From Klebsiella phage ZCKP1, in the sequence record MH252123.1: DNA of 64,000 bases. One strand, given 5' to 3'. The position numbers and the translations under genes were made by a program. A model generated the notes under the pieces. It ran no database searches and had not been told where the DNA came from. It saw only the letters and a list, made by a program, of their open reading frames with translations. Position 1 is the stretch's first letter; every line of letters begins with the position of its first letter. Shown in pieces: positions 38,743 through 41,582 of this stretch.

Positions 38743-38817
38743 GGCCCTGTAGCTCAATGGGAGAGCTGTCGGCTCATAACCGATAGGTAGCTGGATCGAA
38801 ACCAGCCAGGGCCACCA
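38743..38817 (+). tRNA. tRNA-Met/Ile2 (anticodon CAT), CCA encoded
   Basis: cloverleaf folded by eye: acceptor GGCCCTG/CAGGGCC, anticodon loop CTCATAA, T-loop GGATCGAAACC. Confidence 0.75.
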
Positions 38818-39090: not shown

Positions 39091-39120
39091 TTGACAACTA
39101 ACATTATTTTATGTTAGATT
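39091..39120 (+). promoter_or_regulatory. sigma70 promoter (ctaTTGACAa-18-TAGATT) ahead of the second tRNA block
   Basis: consensus -35 with the extended upstream context. Confidence 0.45.
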
Positions 39121-39128
39121 ATAAGTAT

Positions 39129-39219
39129 GGAAGGGCAAATCGACGTGGCGACGAAAACGGTCTTGAAAACCGCCGAGCTTGAAAGAGCCTTGGGAGTTCG
39201 ACTCTCCCTCCTTCCGCCA
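39129..39219 (+). tRNA. tRNA-Ser (anticodon TGA), long variable arm, CCA encoded
   Basis: acceptor GGAAGGG/TCCTTCC, loop CTTGAAA, variable-arm hairpin, T-arm GGGAGTTCGACTCTCCC. Confidence 0.7.
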
Positions 39220-39223
39220 GATT

Positions 39224-39309
39224 GGTAGATTGGTGAAATGGTAGCCACGACAGTTTGCTAAACTGTAGTCGGAAACGGCGTGTAGGTTCGAGTCCTACAT
39301 CTACCGCCA
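39224..39309 (+). tRNA. tRNA-Ser (anticodon GCT), long variable arm, CCA encoded
   Basis: acceptor GGTAGAT/ATCTACC, stem ACAGT/ACTGT, loop TTGCTAA, T-arm GTAGGTTCGAGTCCTAC. Confidence 0.75.
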
Positions 39310-39439
39310 AGTTCTTTTTAATATAGCTTACTTTAGCAGAGTAAATCTTCGGCAAGTGGCGGTAACCACTTTACCGATAACTCATAGTTAGTGGTGTGAA
39401 CACTGGCTATTTTAAAAAGAATTTAAATATTAGTATTTA

Positions 39440-39527
39440 GGTGAGTTAATTCCGTAGGGGTAGCGGGGCAGACTGTAAATCTGTTATCATTGCGATTCGG
39501 GTGGTTCGACTCCATCACTCACCACCA
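39440..39527 (+). tRNA. tRNA-Tyr (anticodon GTA), long variable arm, CCA encoded
   Basis: GCAGACTGTAAATCTGT anticodon arm identical in type to bacterial tRNA-Tyr; acceptor GGTGAGT/ACTCACC. Confidence 0.7.
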
Positions 39528-39533
39528 AATTAA

Positions 39534-39619
39534 GATGAGTTGGCTGAATGGTTTAAGCGGCGGACTGTTAATCCGTGTTCGAAAGAACGATATAGGTTCA
39601 AATCCTATACTCATCGCCA
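39534..39619 (+). tRNA. atypical tRNA with Asn anticodon arm (GTT) plus 15-nt variable-arm hairpin, CCA encoded
   Basis: anticodon arm GCGGACTGTTAATCCGT equals the E. coli tRNA-Asn arm; variable region GTTCGAAAGAACGAT forms GTTC/GAAC hairpin; discriminator G. Confidence 0.55.
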
Positions 39620-39626
39620 GAATTAT

Positions 39627-39704
39627 GGACTTGTAGAGTTAAGGTAAACCCCCCAGTCGCCAAGAGGCTTCTGAAATTGCAGGTATCGAATCCTGCCGAG
39701 TCCC
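39627..39704 (+). ncRNA. degenerate tRNA-like element (good acceptor and T-arm, no canonical anticodon arm)
   Basis: acceptor GGACTTG/CGAGTCC and GCAGG-TATCGAAT-CCTGC T-arm with 8-nt loop; middle region forms CAGtcGCCaagaGGCttCTG hairpin instead of an anticodon arm; no CCA. Confidence 0.35.
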
Positions 39705-39710
39705 AGCTTT

Positions 39711-39785
39711 GCTCCTATAGTATAATGGCTATTACAACGGTTTTGTAATCCGTGGATCTCTGTTCGATTCAGAGTGGGAGCACCA
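39711..39785 (+). tRNA. tRNA-Thr (anticodon TGT), CCA encoded
   Basis: acceptor GCTCCTA/TGGGAGC, loop TTTGTAA, T-arm CTCTGTTCGATTCAGAG. Confidence 0.65.
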
Positions 39786-39964
39786 ACACAACATTAAGGG
39801 CACTGTGATTGATCGTCGTATCCTGTGCACAAGGTCTGTTCGAAAGACAGTGTTCTTAGTATTGTGTTGATCACAAAAAGAGTCACCTGAAACTTGACCG
39901 GAGTAGGGTTGGATGGGGCAAAAGAAGAAGCGGCTCTCCCATCGACAGCAACGAAGAATAATAT

Positions 39965-39993: not shown

Positions 39994-40140
39994 AGCTTAC
40001 CGAACGTAGGGCTAGTCACCCAACGGGATACTCGTCACTGTCCCACTCAAAGAAAAGAAGAACCAAACTGTTAACGTTAAGAAAAAATTACCCTTAACTA
40101 ATCCATTTTATCACAAATGGATTTCATATGTCAATATGTT

Positions 40141-40160
40141 TGCGCGTTGCACAGCGCGCA
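40141..40160 (+). promoter_or_regulatory. palindromic operator-like site TGCGCG-ttgcacag-CGCGCA immediately upstream of higA RBS
   Basis: perfect 6-bp inverted repeat 25 nt before the start codon. Confidence 0.45.
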
Positions 40161-40184
40161 AAATCAGAGTATTTAGGAGGTTAC

Positions 40185-40526
40185 ATGGTCACATTGCACA
40201 AACCTATGCACCCCGGCGAGTTTATCCGCGAAGTATATTTAGAGCCGTTAGAGCTTCAAATAGGAACGTTTGCAGAAAAGCTTGGTGTTGATACATCAAC
40301 CGTTAGCCGGTTAGTAAACCAAAAAGCTGACCTTTCTTATGAAATGGCATTACGCCTATCAAAAGCCTTAGGGCGTTCTGCTGACTCTTGGATGAAAATG
40401 CAAATAGCATATGGTTTATATCGTGCTCAAGATAAAGTAAATCTTGAAGAAGTTGAGGTGGTTTACTGCCCACGGAACTTGGATGCTCCTGAAAAACAGG
40501 TCCATGAATTTTATGAAAATATCTAA
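40185..40526 (+). CDS. higA: HigA-family antitoxin-like XRE helix-turn-helix protein (no cognate toxin ORF found)
   Basis: MHPGEFIREVYLEPL...TFAEKLGVDTSTVSRLVNQKADLSYEMALRLSKALGRSADSWMKMQ matches the HigA/VapI antidote family; RBS AGGAGG-5nt-ATG. Confidence 0.7.
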   Translation: MVTLHKPMHPGEFIREVYLEPLELQIGTFAEKLGVDTSTVSRLVNQKADLSYEMALRLSKALGRSADSWMKMQIAYGLYRAQDKVNLEEVEVVYCPRNLDAPEKQVHEFYENI

Positions 40527-40702
40527 AAACGATATTTCATTTAGGTAAAGAAAAGCTACTAACCATAGGGGCTTTTTGTCTCTACACCTGTGTATTTATG
40601 TGAAGACCTAAGGCAGCATCGTTATTCCTGAAGATGCTTAAACAGCGGTCTTGTACACCCTGTTACCACGGTTCAGAAGTTCCCCAACTTACTGAACATT
40701 CG

Positions 40703-40733
40703 AAAAACCACCCCCCAGGTGGTTTTTCGTTTC
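40703..40733 (+). terminator. rho-independent terminator AAAAACCACCCCCCAGGTGGTTTTTCGTTT
   Basis: CCACC/GGTGG stem followed by a T-run. Confidence 0.65.
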
Positions 40734-40771
40734 AGGATTAAAGATACTCTGCGTCCCACTCAATAAAACTA

Positions 40772-41388: not shown

Positions 41389-41467
41389 TAGCGGGATAGA
41401 GGAGTCTGGTCGTCCTCGCCAGTTTCATATGCTGGAGATCATCGGTTCAAATCCGATTCCCGCCTCC
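41389..41467 (+). tRNA. tRNA-Met (anticodon CAT) with A1-C72 mismatch (initiator-like feature), CCA encoded
   Basis: acceptor AGCGGGA/TCCCGCC with A-C at 1:72, stem CCAGT/GCTGG, loop TTCATAT, T-arm ATCGGTTCAAATCCGAT. Confidence 0.6.
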
Positions 41468-41582
41468 AAATATCGCTTGCCAGCGGTATCTTTGAAGACC
41501 TTGCCTGGTTCCTTCTAAGATGGAGGGGTGCGACTCCTTAACGCACAATTATAATAAAGCATTTCAACTTAACAGTATTTAT

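Follow-up and report, generated by a model that had tools for sequence, protein, structure and literature searches.

The window analysed here, 64,000 nucleotides of Klebsiella phage ZCKP1 (MH252123.1), encodes a genuine phage tRNA with an extra arm, a tRNA-Asn(GUU) whose variable region forms a hairpin, and long-arm tRNA-Asn of this type is frequent among phages but nearly missing from bacteria. We consider it fairly probable that the gene encodes a functional, AsnRS-charged phage tRNA reading AAC and AAU, which belongs to a phage-specific long-arm family and whose arm would shield it from host readers of the tRNA-Asn body; the shielding role of the arm is speculative. No published description of a long-arm phage tRNA-Asn was found in the full-text literature, in which few subscription journals are represented and outside of which the T5 tRNA papers of the 1980s-2000s lie.

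Structure of the gene and its surroundings

ARAGORN called a tRNA-Asn(gtt) of 86 nt at exactly 39534-39619(+), and Rfam RF00005 matched the same stretch over the full model (1-71) with 62 bits (gathering score 29), assigning 12 inserted nt to the variable region. In GenBank, near-identical phages have an 86-nt tRNA-Asn-GTT annotated with tRNAscan-SE (MZ726793). The tRNA proposed in the initial annotation was thus recovered, with no failure of covariance-model scoring, and so was its GUU register, as ARAGORN and the tRNAscan-SE annotation give the same anticodon. The MFE fold is a five-arm cloverleaf in which GAAA closes the variable hairpin GUUC/GAAC (Table 1); the cloverleaf is perfect, with a conserved T-loop, the D-loop GG, a 7-bp acceptor stem and a 5-bp T stem (Rfam, fold), and its first acceptor pairs are G1-C72, A2-U71 and U3-A70. 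The other structural claims of the initial annotation also stood. The discriminator is G, the stretch of nt 25-43 (CGGCGGACTGTTAATCCGT) is the same as in E. coli tRNA-Asn, and the 15-nt variable-arm hairpin, in place of 4-5 nt, was found by the fold, the Rfam insertion and covariation, while the proposed likeness of the D-arm to Ser and Leu tRNAs is borne out by U8-G9, by a 3-bp D stem that carries G13.A22, and by a D loop of 8 nt, as long as that of the phage's own tRNA-Ser(GCU).

Table 1. Positions of the tRNA-Asn(GUU) gene, its parts and its upstream neighbours in the window
Feature	Position	Strand	Basis
Candidate sigma-70-like promoter TTGACA-18-TAGATT, upstream of the Ser-Ser-Tyr-Asn-Thr tRNA run	39091..39120	+	Sequence match
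tRNA-Tyr(GUA), directly upstream, 6-nt spacer to tRNA-Asn	39440..39527	+	Rfam 39 bits, tRNAscan annotation in MZ726793
tRNA-Asn(GUU), whole gene, 86 nt, CCA encoded	39534..39619	+	ARAGORN, Rfam RF00005, tRNAscan-SE annotation in MZ726793
Acceptor stem 5' strand GAUGAGU, pairs with ACUCAUC 39609-39615	39534..39540	+	Fold, arm parsing
U8-G9, preceding the D-arm	39541-39542	+	Sequence
D-arm GCUGAAUGGUUUAAGC, 3-bp stem and G13.A22, 8-nt loop, class-II type core	39543..39558	+	Sequence, comparison with phage tRNA-Ser(GCU) and other tRNAs
Anticodon arm GCGGA-CUGUUAA-UCCGU, identical to host E. coli tRNA-Asn	39560..39576	+	Sequence, ARAGORN, host comparison
Anticodon GTT, 7-nt loop CUGUUAA	39567-39569	+	Sequence, ARAGORN
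Variable region GTTCGAAAGAACGAT, 15 nt	39577..39591	+	Fold, Rfam insertion, homologue covariation, geometry statistics
Variable-arm stem GUUC/GAAC	39577-39580 / 39585-39588	+	Fold
Variable-arm loop GAAA	39581-39584	+	Fold
Three unpaired nt GAU, 3' of the variable stem	39589-39591	+	Fold
T-arm AUAGG-UUCAAAU-CCUAU	39592..39608	+	Rfam, fold
Discriminator G73 at 39616, then encoded CCA 39617-39619	39616..39619	+	Sequence

In structural terms the molecule is of class II, with a variable arm of more than 10 nt folded as a stem-loop, G9 and a 3-bp D stem. It departs from the canonical class I shape of tRNA-Asn (variable loop of 4-5 nt; 4-6 nt in short viral tRNA-Asn) by its 15-nt hairpin and has G1-C72 instead of the canonical first pair U1-A72. 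The latter pair is a requirement of GatCAB transamidation and not of AsnRS.

The window stems from a Phapecoctavirus, a phAPEC8-like phage of E. coli. The tRNA-Tyr(GUA) in front of the tRNA-Asn is absent from the ARAGORN calls; the two are probably co-transcribed and processed jointly, so that the tRNA-Asn would be transcribed with its cluster neighbours and excised from a Tyr-Asn precursor, CCA addition being unnecessary. The candidate promoter further upstream has to be read against the count of promoter matches in the tRNA region, which is no greater than in shuffled sequence. Directly 3' of the tRNA-Asn lies RNA3, a tRNA-like RNA, and this module of tRNA-Asn followed by RNA3 is common to T5-like phages and the window phage. 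The acceptor stems of tRNA-Tyr (GGUGAGU) and tRNA-Asn (GAUGAGU) match at 6 of 7 positions, and GUA becomes GUU by one base change. Recent duplication of the neighbouring tRNA-Tyr was nevertheless rejected as the origin of the tRNA-Asn, because across loci the long-arm tRNA-Asn resembled the Tyr, Ser or Leu tRNAs of the phage encoding it no more closely than their counterparts in other phages, and because the D-arms are unrelated.

Distribution of the long-arm family and conservation of the arm

A long-arm tRNA-Asn(GUU) is present in at least 224 isolated phages, which fall into four unrelated lineages and were counted as phage records with matches covering at least 80% of the 86-nt query. They include Phapecoctavirus, Justusliebigvirus, Epseptimavirus, Tequintavirus, Moonvirus and other T4-like phages, Seunavirus and one related Klebsiella phage, and at least 120 further loci match among the viral metagenome contigs of IMG/VR. 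Comparison with related phages, which had been suggested along with the initial annotation, therefore found the long-arm tRNA-Asn(GUU) to be widespread in phages rather than singular. In a length-unbiased scan, the long arm was present in 17 of 120 rows (~14%) of viral tRNA-Asn with the same anticodon arm. Of 520 other non-class-II viral tRNAs, 13 (2.5%) were at least 79 nt long, which makes long arms five to six times as frequent in viral tRNA-Asn as in other class I viral tRNAs. Long arms also occurred sporadically on tRNA-Thr(UGU), Lys(UUU), His, Cys, Trp and Ile(UAU) of viral contigs. The 185,579 cellular species genomes gave 38 pattern matches, about 20 of them real and mostly situated within dense arrays of 7-36 tRNAs, and none was found in 5,426 E. 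coli genomes. The sole BLAST match of the tRNA in E. coli genomes (35 nt in yobD) was discarded as a chance similarity and not a homologue. Within the BASEL collection, phages Bas26, Bas30, Bas32 and Bas33 have the long arm and Bas31 the short one; Bas26 encodes tRNAs for all 20 amino acids, and the long-arm gene is its only Asn tRNA.

In a set of 36 distinct homologues whose variable region is 15 nt long, double compensatory changes were observed at all four stem pairs, so the hairpin is not a product of chance; the inner three pairs were paired in 97-100% of these homologues, and the covariation score of 0.55 (0.13 in shuffles) was reached by none of 500 shuffles. This pattern of substitutions indicates that the extra arm is under selection as a hairpin, and selection would keep it in the form seen across the family, a stem of 3-4 bp and a loop mostly of the GNRA type, followed 3' by 3-4 unpaired nt. 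The covariation points to a hairpin that must fold and says nothing of a function beyond keeping the tRNA folded. By its predicted geometry the arm is tRNA-Tyr-like and not tRNA-Ser-like: 75% of the long-arm Asn tRNAs have a 3' spacer of 3-4 nt, whereas 80% of the Ser tRNAs have 0-1 nt, and the stems measure 3-4 bp vs. 4-7 bp. The arm of the window tRNA, compared with the Ser type (stem of 4-7 bp, 3' spacer of 0-1 nt), is borderline in its 4-bp stem and outside it in its 3-nt spacer, a 3-nt spacer occurring in only about 2-4% of phage tRNA-Ser and one of at least 3 nt in only about 5 of 127. The GNRA loop was rejected as a speciality of long-arm Asn tRNAs, as it is equally common in the Ser and Leu arms of phages.

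At least two types of body bear the arm, one Asn-like with U1 and the other an enteric type with G1, and it occurs in unrelated phage families. U1-A72 occurs in 71-75% of the long-arm family, like in short tRNA-Asn, and in 0-3% of Ser, Tyr and Leu tRNAs; the bodies of 63 of the 80 long-arm members with this pair are closest to ordinary short-arm tRNA-Asn, and a Kuttervirus short-arm sibling is essentially one 10-nt hairpin indel apart from the long-arm gene of Justusliebigvirus. In the enteric-phage clade to which the window gene belongs, the first pair is G1-C72, and a body with some likeness to tRNA-Ser(GCU) goes together with the anticodon arm of the host tRNA-Asn. The initial annotation had left the choice between an Asn tRNA with an inserted arm and a hybrid with altered identity: the inserted arm holds at the level of the family, the hybrid holds for the sequence of the window gene (acceptor stem and D-arm like tRNA-Ser(GCU), anticodon arm of host tRNA-Asn), and the altered identity is without direct support.

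These observations also bear on the explanation that the gene is an ordinary supply tRNA-Asn for an AT-rich and Asn-rich phage, its arm being a fixed insertion or a class II remnant retained by adaptation of the core. The window has a GC content of 38.6%, its long ORFs contain 52.6 Asn codons per 1000, and the remaining tRNAs of the phage likewise decode A/U-rich codons. Class II core traits such as G9, present in about half of the long-arm members vs. A9 in 81% of the short-arm ones, would fit a core co-adapted to the arm, and the short-arm siblings in Kuttervirus and T5 imply that the arm is dispensable. Such a neutral insertion, however, would be expected to be easily deleted and not to be so phage-specific, and we regard this explanation as rather unlikely in view of the enrichment of long arms in viral tRNA-Asn, their presence on different bodies in unrelated phages and their near absence from cellular genomes.

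Identity and charging of the tRNA

Asparagine identity in E. coli consists of the anticodon G34 U35 U36 and G73 and can be transplanted to another tRNA (PMC9976931). The window tRNA has this complete set, which speaks against an altered identity, and 108 of 114 long-arm homologues share its G73 (95-100% across samples). Most likely the window tRNA is charged with asparagine by the host AsnRS via GUU and G73 and decodes AAY. The enzymes for Q34 and t6A37 modification should still accept it, because its anticodon arm is identical to that of the host. LeuRS and TyrRS are excluded by G73, as 95 of 95 Leu and 57 of 58 Tyr tRNAs of phages have A73. Class IIb synthetases come at the tRNA from the side of the variable loop, and the arm might therefore hinder AsnRS.

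With the E. coli tRNA-Asn (asnT/U/V/W; the reference is 100% identical in 5,425 E. coli genomes), the window tRNA shares GUU, G73, nt 25-43, the 7/5 acceptor/T architecture and the encoded CCA, and most environmental long-arm members additionally share U1-A72 and the UCC...GGA acceptor stem. It differs from the host tRNA, which has a 5-nt variable region, in its 15 nt with a 4-bp hairpin, in G1-C72, A2-U71 and U8-G9, and in the class-II-type D-arm (3-bp stem). The long variable arm, G9, the 3-bp D stem and the 13.22 mismatch are in turn shared with the bacterial class II tRNAs (Tyr, Leu, Ser), of which tRNA-Tyr is nearest in arm length and 3' spacer, Ser and Leu tRNAs have the same GNRA arm loop and tRNA-Ser(GCU) has a similar body; the anticodon, however, belongs to none of the three, and A2-U71 and the 3-nt spacer set it apart from tRNA-Ser. 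Long arms combined with class I amino-acid anticodons also occur naturally in nematode nev-tRNAs (Hamashima et al. 2012, PMC3333845) and in bacterial allo-tRNAs with 8/4 or 9/3 acceptor/T stems (Mukai et al. 2017, reviewed in PMC7609411). In those tRNAs the body determines the charging, which is with Leu or Ser; they cause recoding and are rare or weakly expressed, whereas the phage tRNA combines a 7/5 architecture, rather than 8/4 or 9/3, with the full Asn identity set and the normal Asn slot.

The body of the window tRNA raises the alternative of a serine-accepting or dual Asn/Ser tRNA, in which SerRS would read the arm, G73 and the Ser-like body and serine would be inserted at AAC/AAU. SerRS ignores the anticodon, and such charging would parallel nev-tRNAs, allo-tRNAs and engineered anticodon variants of tRNA-Ser. 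When the anticodon and variable arms are masked for the comparison, the nearest non-Asn bodies are those of tRNA-Ser(GCU), with a class mean score of 10.0 compared with 1.1 for short tRNA-Asn. The acceptor stem departs from that of host tRNA-Ser(GCU) (GGUGAGG vs. GAUGAGU) only at pairs 2-71 and 7-66, G73, G1-C72 and C11-G24 are present, many clade members retain all of the Ser determinants G1-C72, G2-C71, C11-G24 and G73, and the variable region of the phage's own tRNA-Ser(GCU) has the same length of 15 nt and the same 4 bp. However, G2-C71 is absolutely conserved in E. coli tRNA-Ser, and C2-G71 is a listed antideterminant against SerRS (PMC9976931): the window tRNA has A2-U71, most family members have U1-A72 and about half have C2-G71, so the arm is not a general handle for SerRS. 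The geometry of the arm, with a 3' spacer seldom found in phage tRNA-Ser, the host-identical anticodon arm and the position of the long-arm gene as sole Asn tRNA in phages with a full 20-amino-acid set argue in the same direction, and missense at Asn codons would be very costly because these make up ~5% of all codons in the window.

Fitted with a CUA anticodon, the long-arm tRNA-Asn of Salmonella phage 5 acts as an amber suppressor according to a GenBank note, whereas the short-arm tRNA-Asn of T5 does not. The long-arm scaffold thus works in E. coli translation and can be charged without the GUU anticodon, by SerRS or GlnRS. The identity elements of GlnRS are G73, G2-C71, G3-C70, G10 and U35. 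The phage-5 tRNA has all of these, and its suppression is explicable by GlnRS without any serine charging. We regard charging of the window tRNA by SerRS as improbable, and AsnRS remains the synthetase that we favour.

Phage defence and significance of the arm

Phage tRNAs counter the immune tRNases PARIS AriB, retron Eco7/PtuAB and PrrC (PMC12409363, PMC11555353, PMC10264068), and the isoacceptor of the window is the one targeted by AriB, which cuts host tRNA-Asn(GUU) between 40 and 41 (PMC12409363). The cut site lies three to four nt ahead of the start of the arm, and the recognition sequence U36-A-A-U-C/C41 is intact in the window tRNA. T5 counters PARIS with a short-arm tRNA-Asn with a mutated anticodon stem (PMC12409363), a 78-nt gene with a U30.U40 mismatch at the cleavage site; BASEL phage Bas34 requires this tRNA in trans for its escape, and T4 and T7 escape without a phage tRNA-Asn (PMC12409363). 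The T5 tRNA-Asn of the rescue experiments was considered as a member of the long-arm family and rejected, and as it is short-armed the PARIS rescue is not directly informative on the long-arm type. It is the same isoacceptor in the same tRNA-Asn/RNA3 module of T5-like phages, but the window tRNA has the host anticodon arm, with no stem-loop change near the cleavage site, and an altered body with the extra arm. Since the anticodon arm is unchanged, any escape would have to reside in the body of the tRNA or in its extra arm. The long-arm tRNA-Asn of SP15 gave no rescue from PrrC170, a nuclease that targets tRNA-Lys.

Belukhina et al. consider that viral tRNAs, when overexpressed, might inhibit AriB competitively (PMC12409363), and the gene might accordingly encode a non-translating tRNA-like decoy that soaks up or inhibits a host nuclease directed at tRNA-Asn, or another tRNA-binding factor; its anticodon arm is that of the host target and RNA3 lies directly downstream. 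The cloverleaf, T-loop, D-loop GG, encoded CCA and G73, however, are features of translating tRNAs and the scaffold is capable of amber suppression in E. coli, which makes the decoy scarcely credible. In a translating, AsnRS-charged tRNA, the arm probably changes how other tRNA-binding proteins, immune tRNases for example, recognise the molecule, and tRNA nucleases and other host readers of the tRNA-Asn body would then fail on it while AsnRS would still act. A wider extension, possible yet doubtful, is that class-II-like arms grafted on class I tRNAs are a general counter-defence of phages, which would disguise the shape of the body from tRNases and toxins and leave untouched the anticodon arm, on which the cognate synthetase and the modification enzymes depend, with tRNA-Asn(GUU) as the commonest case and Thr, Lys, His, Cys, Trp and Ile as further ones.

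Textbooks and recent reviews recognise long variable arms only in tRNAs for Ser, Leu and Sec and in bacterial tRNA-Tyr (PMC7954030, PMC9976931). Exceptions are known in nev-tRNAs and allo-tRNAs, oddities that recode, whereas the long-arm tRNA-Asn is common in phages and reaches the well-studied T5-like and T4-like groups as well as the BASEL collection. This tRNA offers a natural experiment on whether AsnRS, a class IIb enzyme, tolerates a long arm, and it could provide orthogonal tRNA scaffolds. Charging by SerRS, if true, would be the first phage-encoded Asn-to-Ser missense decoding. For the phages that carry it, the long-arm tRNA-Asn is a candidate for a new escape from immune tRNases, in which the body of the tRNA would be changed rather than the anticodon loop mutated.

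The tRNA-Asn gene and its surroundings

The window derives from a phAPEC8-like E. coli myophage (Phapecoctavirus, Stephanstirmvirinae), with 99.5% identity to Escherichia phage vB_EcoM_ASO2A over 39200-39800. ARAGORN called a tRNA-Asn(gtt) of 86 nt with boundaries exactly at 39534-39619(+), the Rfam tRNA model was matched over its whole length (62 bits, gathering score 29) with 12 nt inserted at the variable region, and the tRNAscan-SE annotation deposited for a near-identical phage gives an 86-nt tRNA-Asn-GTT. The minimum-free-energy fold is a cloverleaf with five arms, and the sequence reads as acceptor stem GAUGAGU/ACUCAUC, U8-G9, D-arm GCUGAAUGGUUUAAGC, anticodon arm GCGGA-CUGUUAA-UCCGU, variable region GUUC-GAAA-GAAC-GAU, T-arm AUAGG-UUCAAAU-CCUAU, G73 and an encoded CCA. 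Nucleotides 25-43 are identical to host E. coli tRNA-Asn, whose reference sequence was 100% identical across 5,425 E. coli genomes. Because calls, fold and host-sequence match agree, every element observed in the initial annotation was right, including the E. coli-identical Asn (GUU) anticodon arm, the discriminator G and the variable-arm hairpin; the gene is a real tRNA, and confidence that it functions as one is very high.

Features of the tRNA cluster (window positions)
Feature	Position	Strand	Remarks
CAU-anticodon tRNA	38743-38817	+	ARAGORN: tRNA-Met; near-identical phage record: tRNA-Ile-CAT (lysidine-type Ile2)
tRNA-Ser(UGA)	39129-39219	+	tRNAscan-SE in MZ726793; not in ARAGORN calls
tRNA-Tyr(GUA)	39440-39527	+	Rfam 39 bits; tRNAscan-SE in MZ726793; not in ARAGORN calls
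tRNA-like element (RNA3)	39627-39706	+	directly 3' of tRNA-Asn
tRNA-Thr(UGU)	39711-39785	+	adjoins tRNA-Asn
712-nt insertion	about 40053-40764	+	between tRNA-Thr and tRNA-Gly
HigA-family antitoxin ORF	40128-40526		within insertion; intact, 132 aa
RNAI	40629-40730		full Rfam match, 63 bits (gathering score 47)
Second CAU tRNA	41390-41468		

Two further class II tRNAs of the cluster, both missed by ARAGORN, are tRNA-Tyr(GUA) and tRNA-Ser(UGA), the latter scoring just 37 bits with the Rfam tRNA-Sec model, under threshold. In the RNA3 element, called by neither ARAGORN nor Rfam, a 7-bp stem resembles an acceptor stem (GGACUUG/CGAGUCC); the element also contains the conserved motif UAGAGUUAAGGUAAACC, a variable hairpin and, with a loop of 8 nt, a hairpin like a T-arm. 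As the same element lies 3' of tRNA-Asn in T5 (annotated 'rna3, putative tRNA-like RNA'), Salmonella phage 5, SHSML-45, Bas33 (a phage of the BASEL collection) and Justusliebigvirus, tRNA-Asn and RNA3 form a module common to unrelated phage families. The 712-nt insertion was found in no other phage record; it matches, at 97.5% identity, small ColE1-type plasmids from E. coli and Citrobacter, in which the aligned region is longer and includes a RelE/ParE toxin gene. It is either an assembly chimera or a real capture of plasmid DNA, in which case the orphan antitoxin perhaps serves as a counter-defence.

A phage family of long-arm tRNA-Asn

Sensitive BLAST retrieved at least 224 phage records with coverage of 80% or more of the 86-nt window tRNA. 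The fetched examples all fold alike, each with GUU, G73, an encoded CCA and a variable hairpin of 3-4 bp whose sequence varies from lineage to lineage. They include Epseptimavirus (vB_EcoS-26175IV, Bas26, Bas30) and Tequintavirus (SHSML-45, Bas32, Bas33, SP15, Salmonella phage 5) with genes of 83-86 nt, and Justusliebigvirus (Bas61 EmilieFrey), Moonvirus (Citrobacter phage Merlin), the T4-like Klebsiella phage Roth04 and Novosibvirus (Proteus phage PM135) with genes of 85 nt. In IMG/VR the long-arm pattern (the anticodon arm, then GGTTC 15-24 nt on) occurred at no fewer than 120 loci. With a gap of 7-24 nt to GGTTC, a scan insensitive to arm length, 17 of 120 among the matches listed were long-armed (~14%); at viral loci chosen solely by short-arm match, 13 of 520 other non-class-II tRNAs (2.5%) reached at least 79 nt. 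The same long-arm pattern gave 38 stretches in cellular genomes (185,579 bacterial and archaeal species, one genome each), of which roughly 20 are real long-arm tRNA-Asn, mostly within dense arrays of 7-36 tRNA genes (Micromonospora, Verrucosispora, MAG contigs), and the complete E. coli genomes searched held no homologue of the window tRNA. Given this rarity in cells and the location within arrays, the long arm is a trait of phages and mobile tRNA arrays rather than of cells, and the window tRNA belongs to a widespread, phage-specific tRNA-Asn family with a class-II-like arm.

Viral contigs also hold sporadic long arms on other class I tRNAs, namely Thr(UGU), Lys(UUU), Cys, Trp, His, Glu and Gly, together with many long-armed Ile(UAU) (viral loci L047 206-290, L240 4198-4287, L009 9032-9203 and L146 2720-2805 are examples of such class I tRNAs). 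The long-armed Thr and Lys cases form proper hairpins; part of the sporadic cases may be introns or mis-calls.

In recent reviews, long arms are confined to tRNAs for Ser, Leu and Sec and to bacterial tRNA-Tyr. On class I amino-acid tRNAs, long arms have been described in nematode nev-tRNAs (PMC3333845, PMC4033280) and bacterial allo-tRNAs (PMC7609411), where charging follows the body and recoding results; the phage long-arm tRNA-Asn, in contrast, keeps the usual 7/5 architecture, carries the complete set of Asn identity elements and occupies the normal Asn slot. Long-arm genes already carry the tRNA-Asn annotation in hundreds of records; a description of a long-arm phage tRNA-Asn was not found in the full-text literature (older subscription literature lay outside the search), and papers employing T5-like tRNA-Asn genes do not discuss the variable arm.

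Selection on the arm and affinity of the body

Among 114 distinct long-arm sequences parsed for geometry, the variable region is most commonly 15 nt long with a stem of 3-4 bp, GAAA loops make up 47% and GNRA loops 63-68%, and 0-1 and 3-4 unpaired nt flank the arm on the 5' and 3' sides, respectively. When 36 distinct sequences whose variable region measures 15 nt were aligned without gaps, double compensatory changes appeared at 4/4 stem pairs; the inner three pairs are paired in 97-100% with 3-5 pair types each, and the covariation score was 0.55, against 0.13 in column shuffles (0/500 reached it) and ≤0.10 with partner columns slid. By this covariation pattern, the arm is evidently kept by selection. 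Compared with class II tRNAs from the same loci, long-arm Asn (commonest 3' spacer 3-4 nt, 75%; usual stem 3-4 bp) resembles tRNA-Tyr (3 nt, 66%; 3-4 bp) in both measures and differs in both from tRNA-Ser (0-1 nt, 80%; 4-7 bp), with tRNA-Leu at 2 nt (60%) and 2-5 bp. Its GNRA loops are like those of Ser and Leu arms, whereas Tyr arms mostly have UUCG.

The initial annotation had proposed either an Asn tRNA with an inserted arm or a hybrid with altered identity. U1-A72 is a hallmark of bacterial tRNA-Asn, and transamidation requires it in bacteria without AsnRS; 71-75% of long-arm members have it, close to the 79% of short tRNA-Asn and unlike the 0-3% of Ser/Tyr/Leu tRNAs, and G73 is present in 95-100% of the long-arm family. 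When bodies were compared with anticodon and variable arms masked, ordinary short tRNA-Asn was the nearest class for 63/80 U1-type members; most of the family is therefore a plain tRNA-Asn body into which an arm has been inserted. The Justusliebigvirus gene and a short-arm sibling from Kuttervirus, which have the same T stem, are essentially a 10-nt hairpin apart (GA[ACGAAAGTTC]TAG vs GATAG). The window tRNA belongs to an enteric-phage clade with G1-C72 and bodies of mixed affinity (tRNA-Ser top in 11/26). Its closest non-Asn class is tRNA-Ser(GCU) (mean masked-body score 10.0 vs 1.1 for short tRNA-Asn), and pairs 2-71 and 7-66 are the sole differences between its acceptor stem and that of verified host tRNA-Ser(GCU). 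'Hybrid' thus describes the window tRNA fairly, and the inserted arm holds for most of the family, so that the interpretation in the initial annotation is supported in part.

Amino acid identity and possible role of the arm

In E. coli, Asn identity consists of the anticodon GUU and G73 and can be transplanted into another tRNA (PMC9976931). The window tRNA has both elements, and G73 rules out LeuRS and TyrRS; judged from these it probably carries asparagine. A Ser or dual identity, as its tRNA-Ser(GCU)-like body might imply, appears distinctly improbable: pair 2-71 is A-U in place of the G2-C71 that E. coli tRNA-Ser conserves absolutely, and the 3' spacer is not Ser-type. Long-arm members with C2-G71, a listed antideterminant against SerRS, also retain the arm, which is therefore no general SerRS handle. 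Bas26 encodes tRNAs for all twenty amino acids, its sole Asn tRNA being the long-arm gene, and at 5.3% Asn codons in long ORFs of the window, systematic missense would be very costly. According to GenBank notes, the 83-nt long-arm tRNA-Asn of Salmonella phage 5 becomes an amber suppressor with a CUA anticodon, and the same swap in the T5 short-arm tRNA-Asn gives none. As the phage 5 record shows, the long-arm scaffold undergoes processing, serves in E. coli translation and is chargeable without GUU; this tRNA has G73, G2-C71, G3-C70, G10 and a Gln-like D-arm, and its CUA version could be charged by SerRS, a point in favour of Ser or dual identity, or by GlnRS. Taking GUU and G73, the points against Ser and the suppressor notes together, Asn identity is rated most likely, with Ser or dual identity kept as a live rival.

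T5-like phages have three alternative tRNA-Asn alleles at one locus upstream of RNA3: the T5 short allele (93 records including Bas31), a long allele with a 13-nt variable region (155 records including Bas32, SP15 and phage 5) and a long allele with a 15-nt region (Bas33). These Tequintavirus alleles are interchangeable (loci L267 13953-14525, L277 and L278 3551-3636). An overlapping ORF that resembles homing endonucleases, T5.069 (annotated GIY-YIG / 'putative homing endonuclease'), is physically linked to the T5-type short allele, which suggests homing as the driver of allele replacement in Tequintavirus.

AriB, the immune tRNA nuclease of PARIS, has host tRNA-Asn(GUU) among its targets; it cuts between positions 40 and 41 with further contacts in the D-loop and other parts of the tRNA body, and the T5 tRNA-Asn helps to neutralise PARIS (PMC12409363). 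Host tRNA-Thr(UGU) carries A41 at the cleavage site, and A41C in tRNA-Lys strongly lowers cleavage (PMC12409363); the phage tRNA-Thr(UGU) reads U36-A-A-U-C-C41. The Justusliebigvirus gene order Lys-Tyr-Asn-Thr brings together known immune-tRNase targets. In the T5 tRNA-Asn gene the arm is short and the altered anticodon stem places a U30.U40 mismatch where AriB cuts; the window tRNA has the host's anticodon arm unchanged, and its variable arm begins three to four nt 3' of the cut site. Any functional difference from host tRNA-Asn would thus reside in its body and arm. Bas33 carries the long-arm type and requires only T5 tRNA-Lys for escape from PARIS, a result compatible with evasion but no proof of it, because T4 and T7 likewise escape without a phage tRNA-Asn. 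A neutral insertion, structurally locked in, is a possible though not a likely account of the arm; tentatively, the arm may serve evasion of host tRNA-binding proteins. Changing body and arm would then be a second route, besides the T5 type, of escape from proteins that read the tRNA body, and would leave intact the anticodon arm needed by AsnRS and by the Q34 and t6A37 enzymes.
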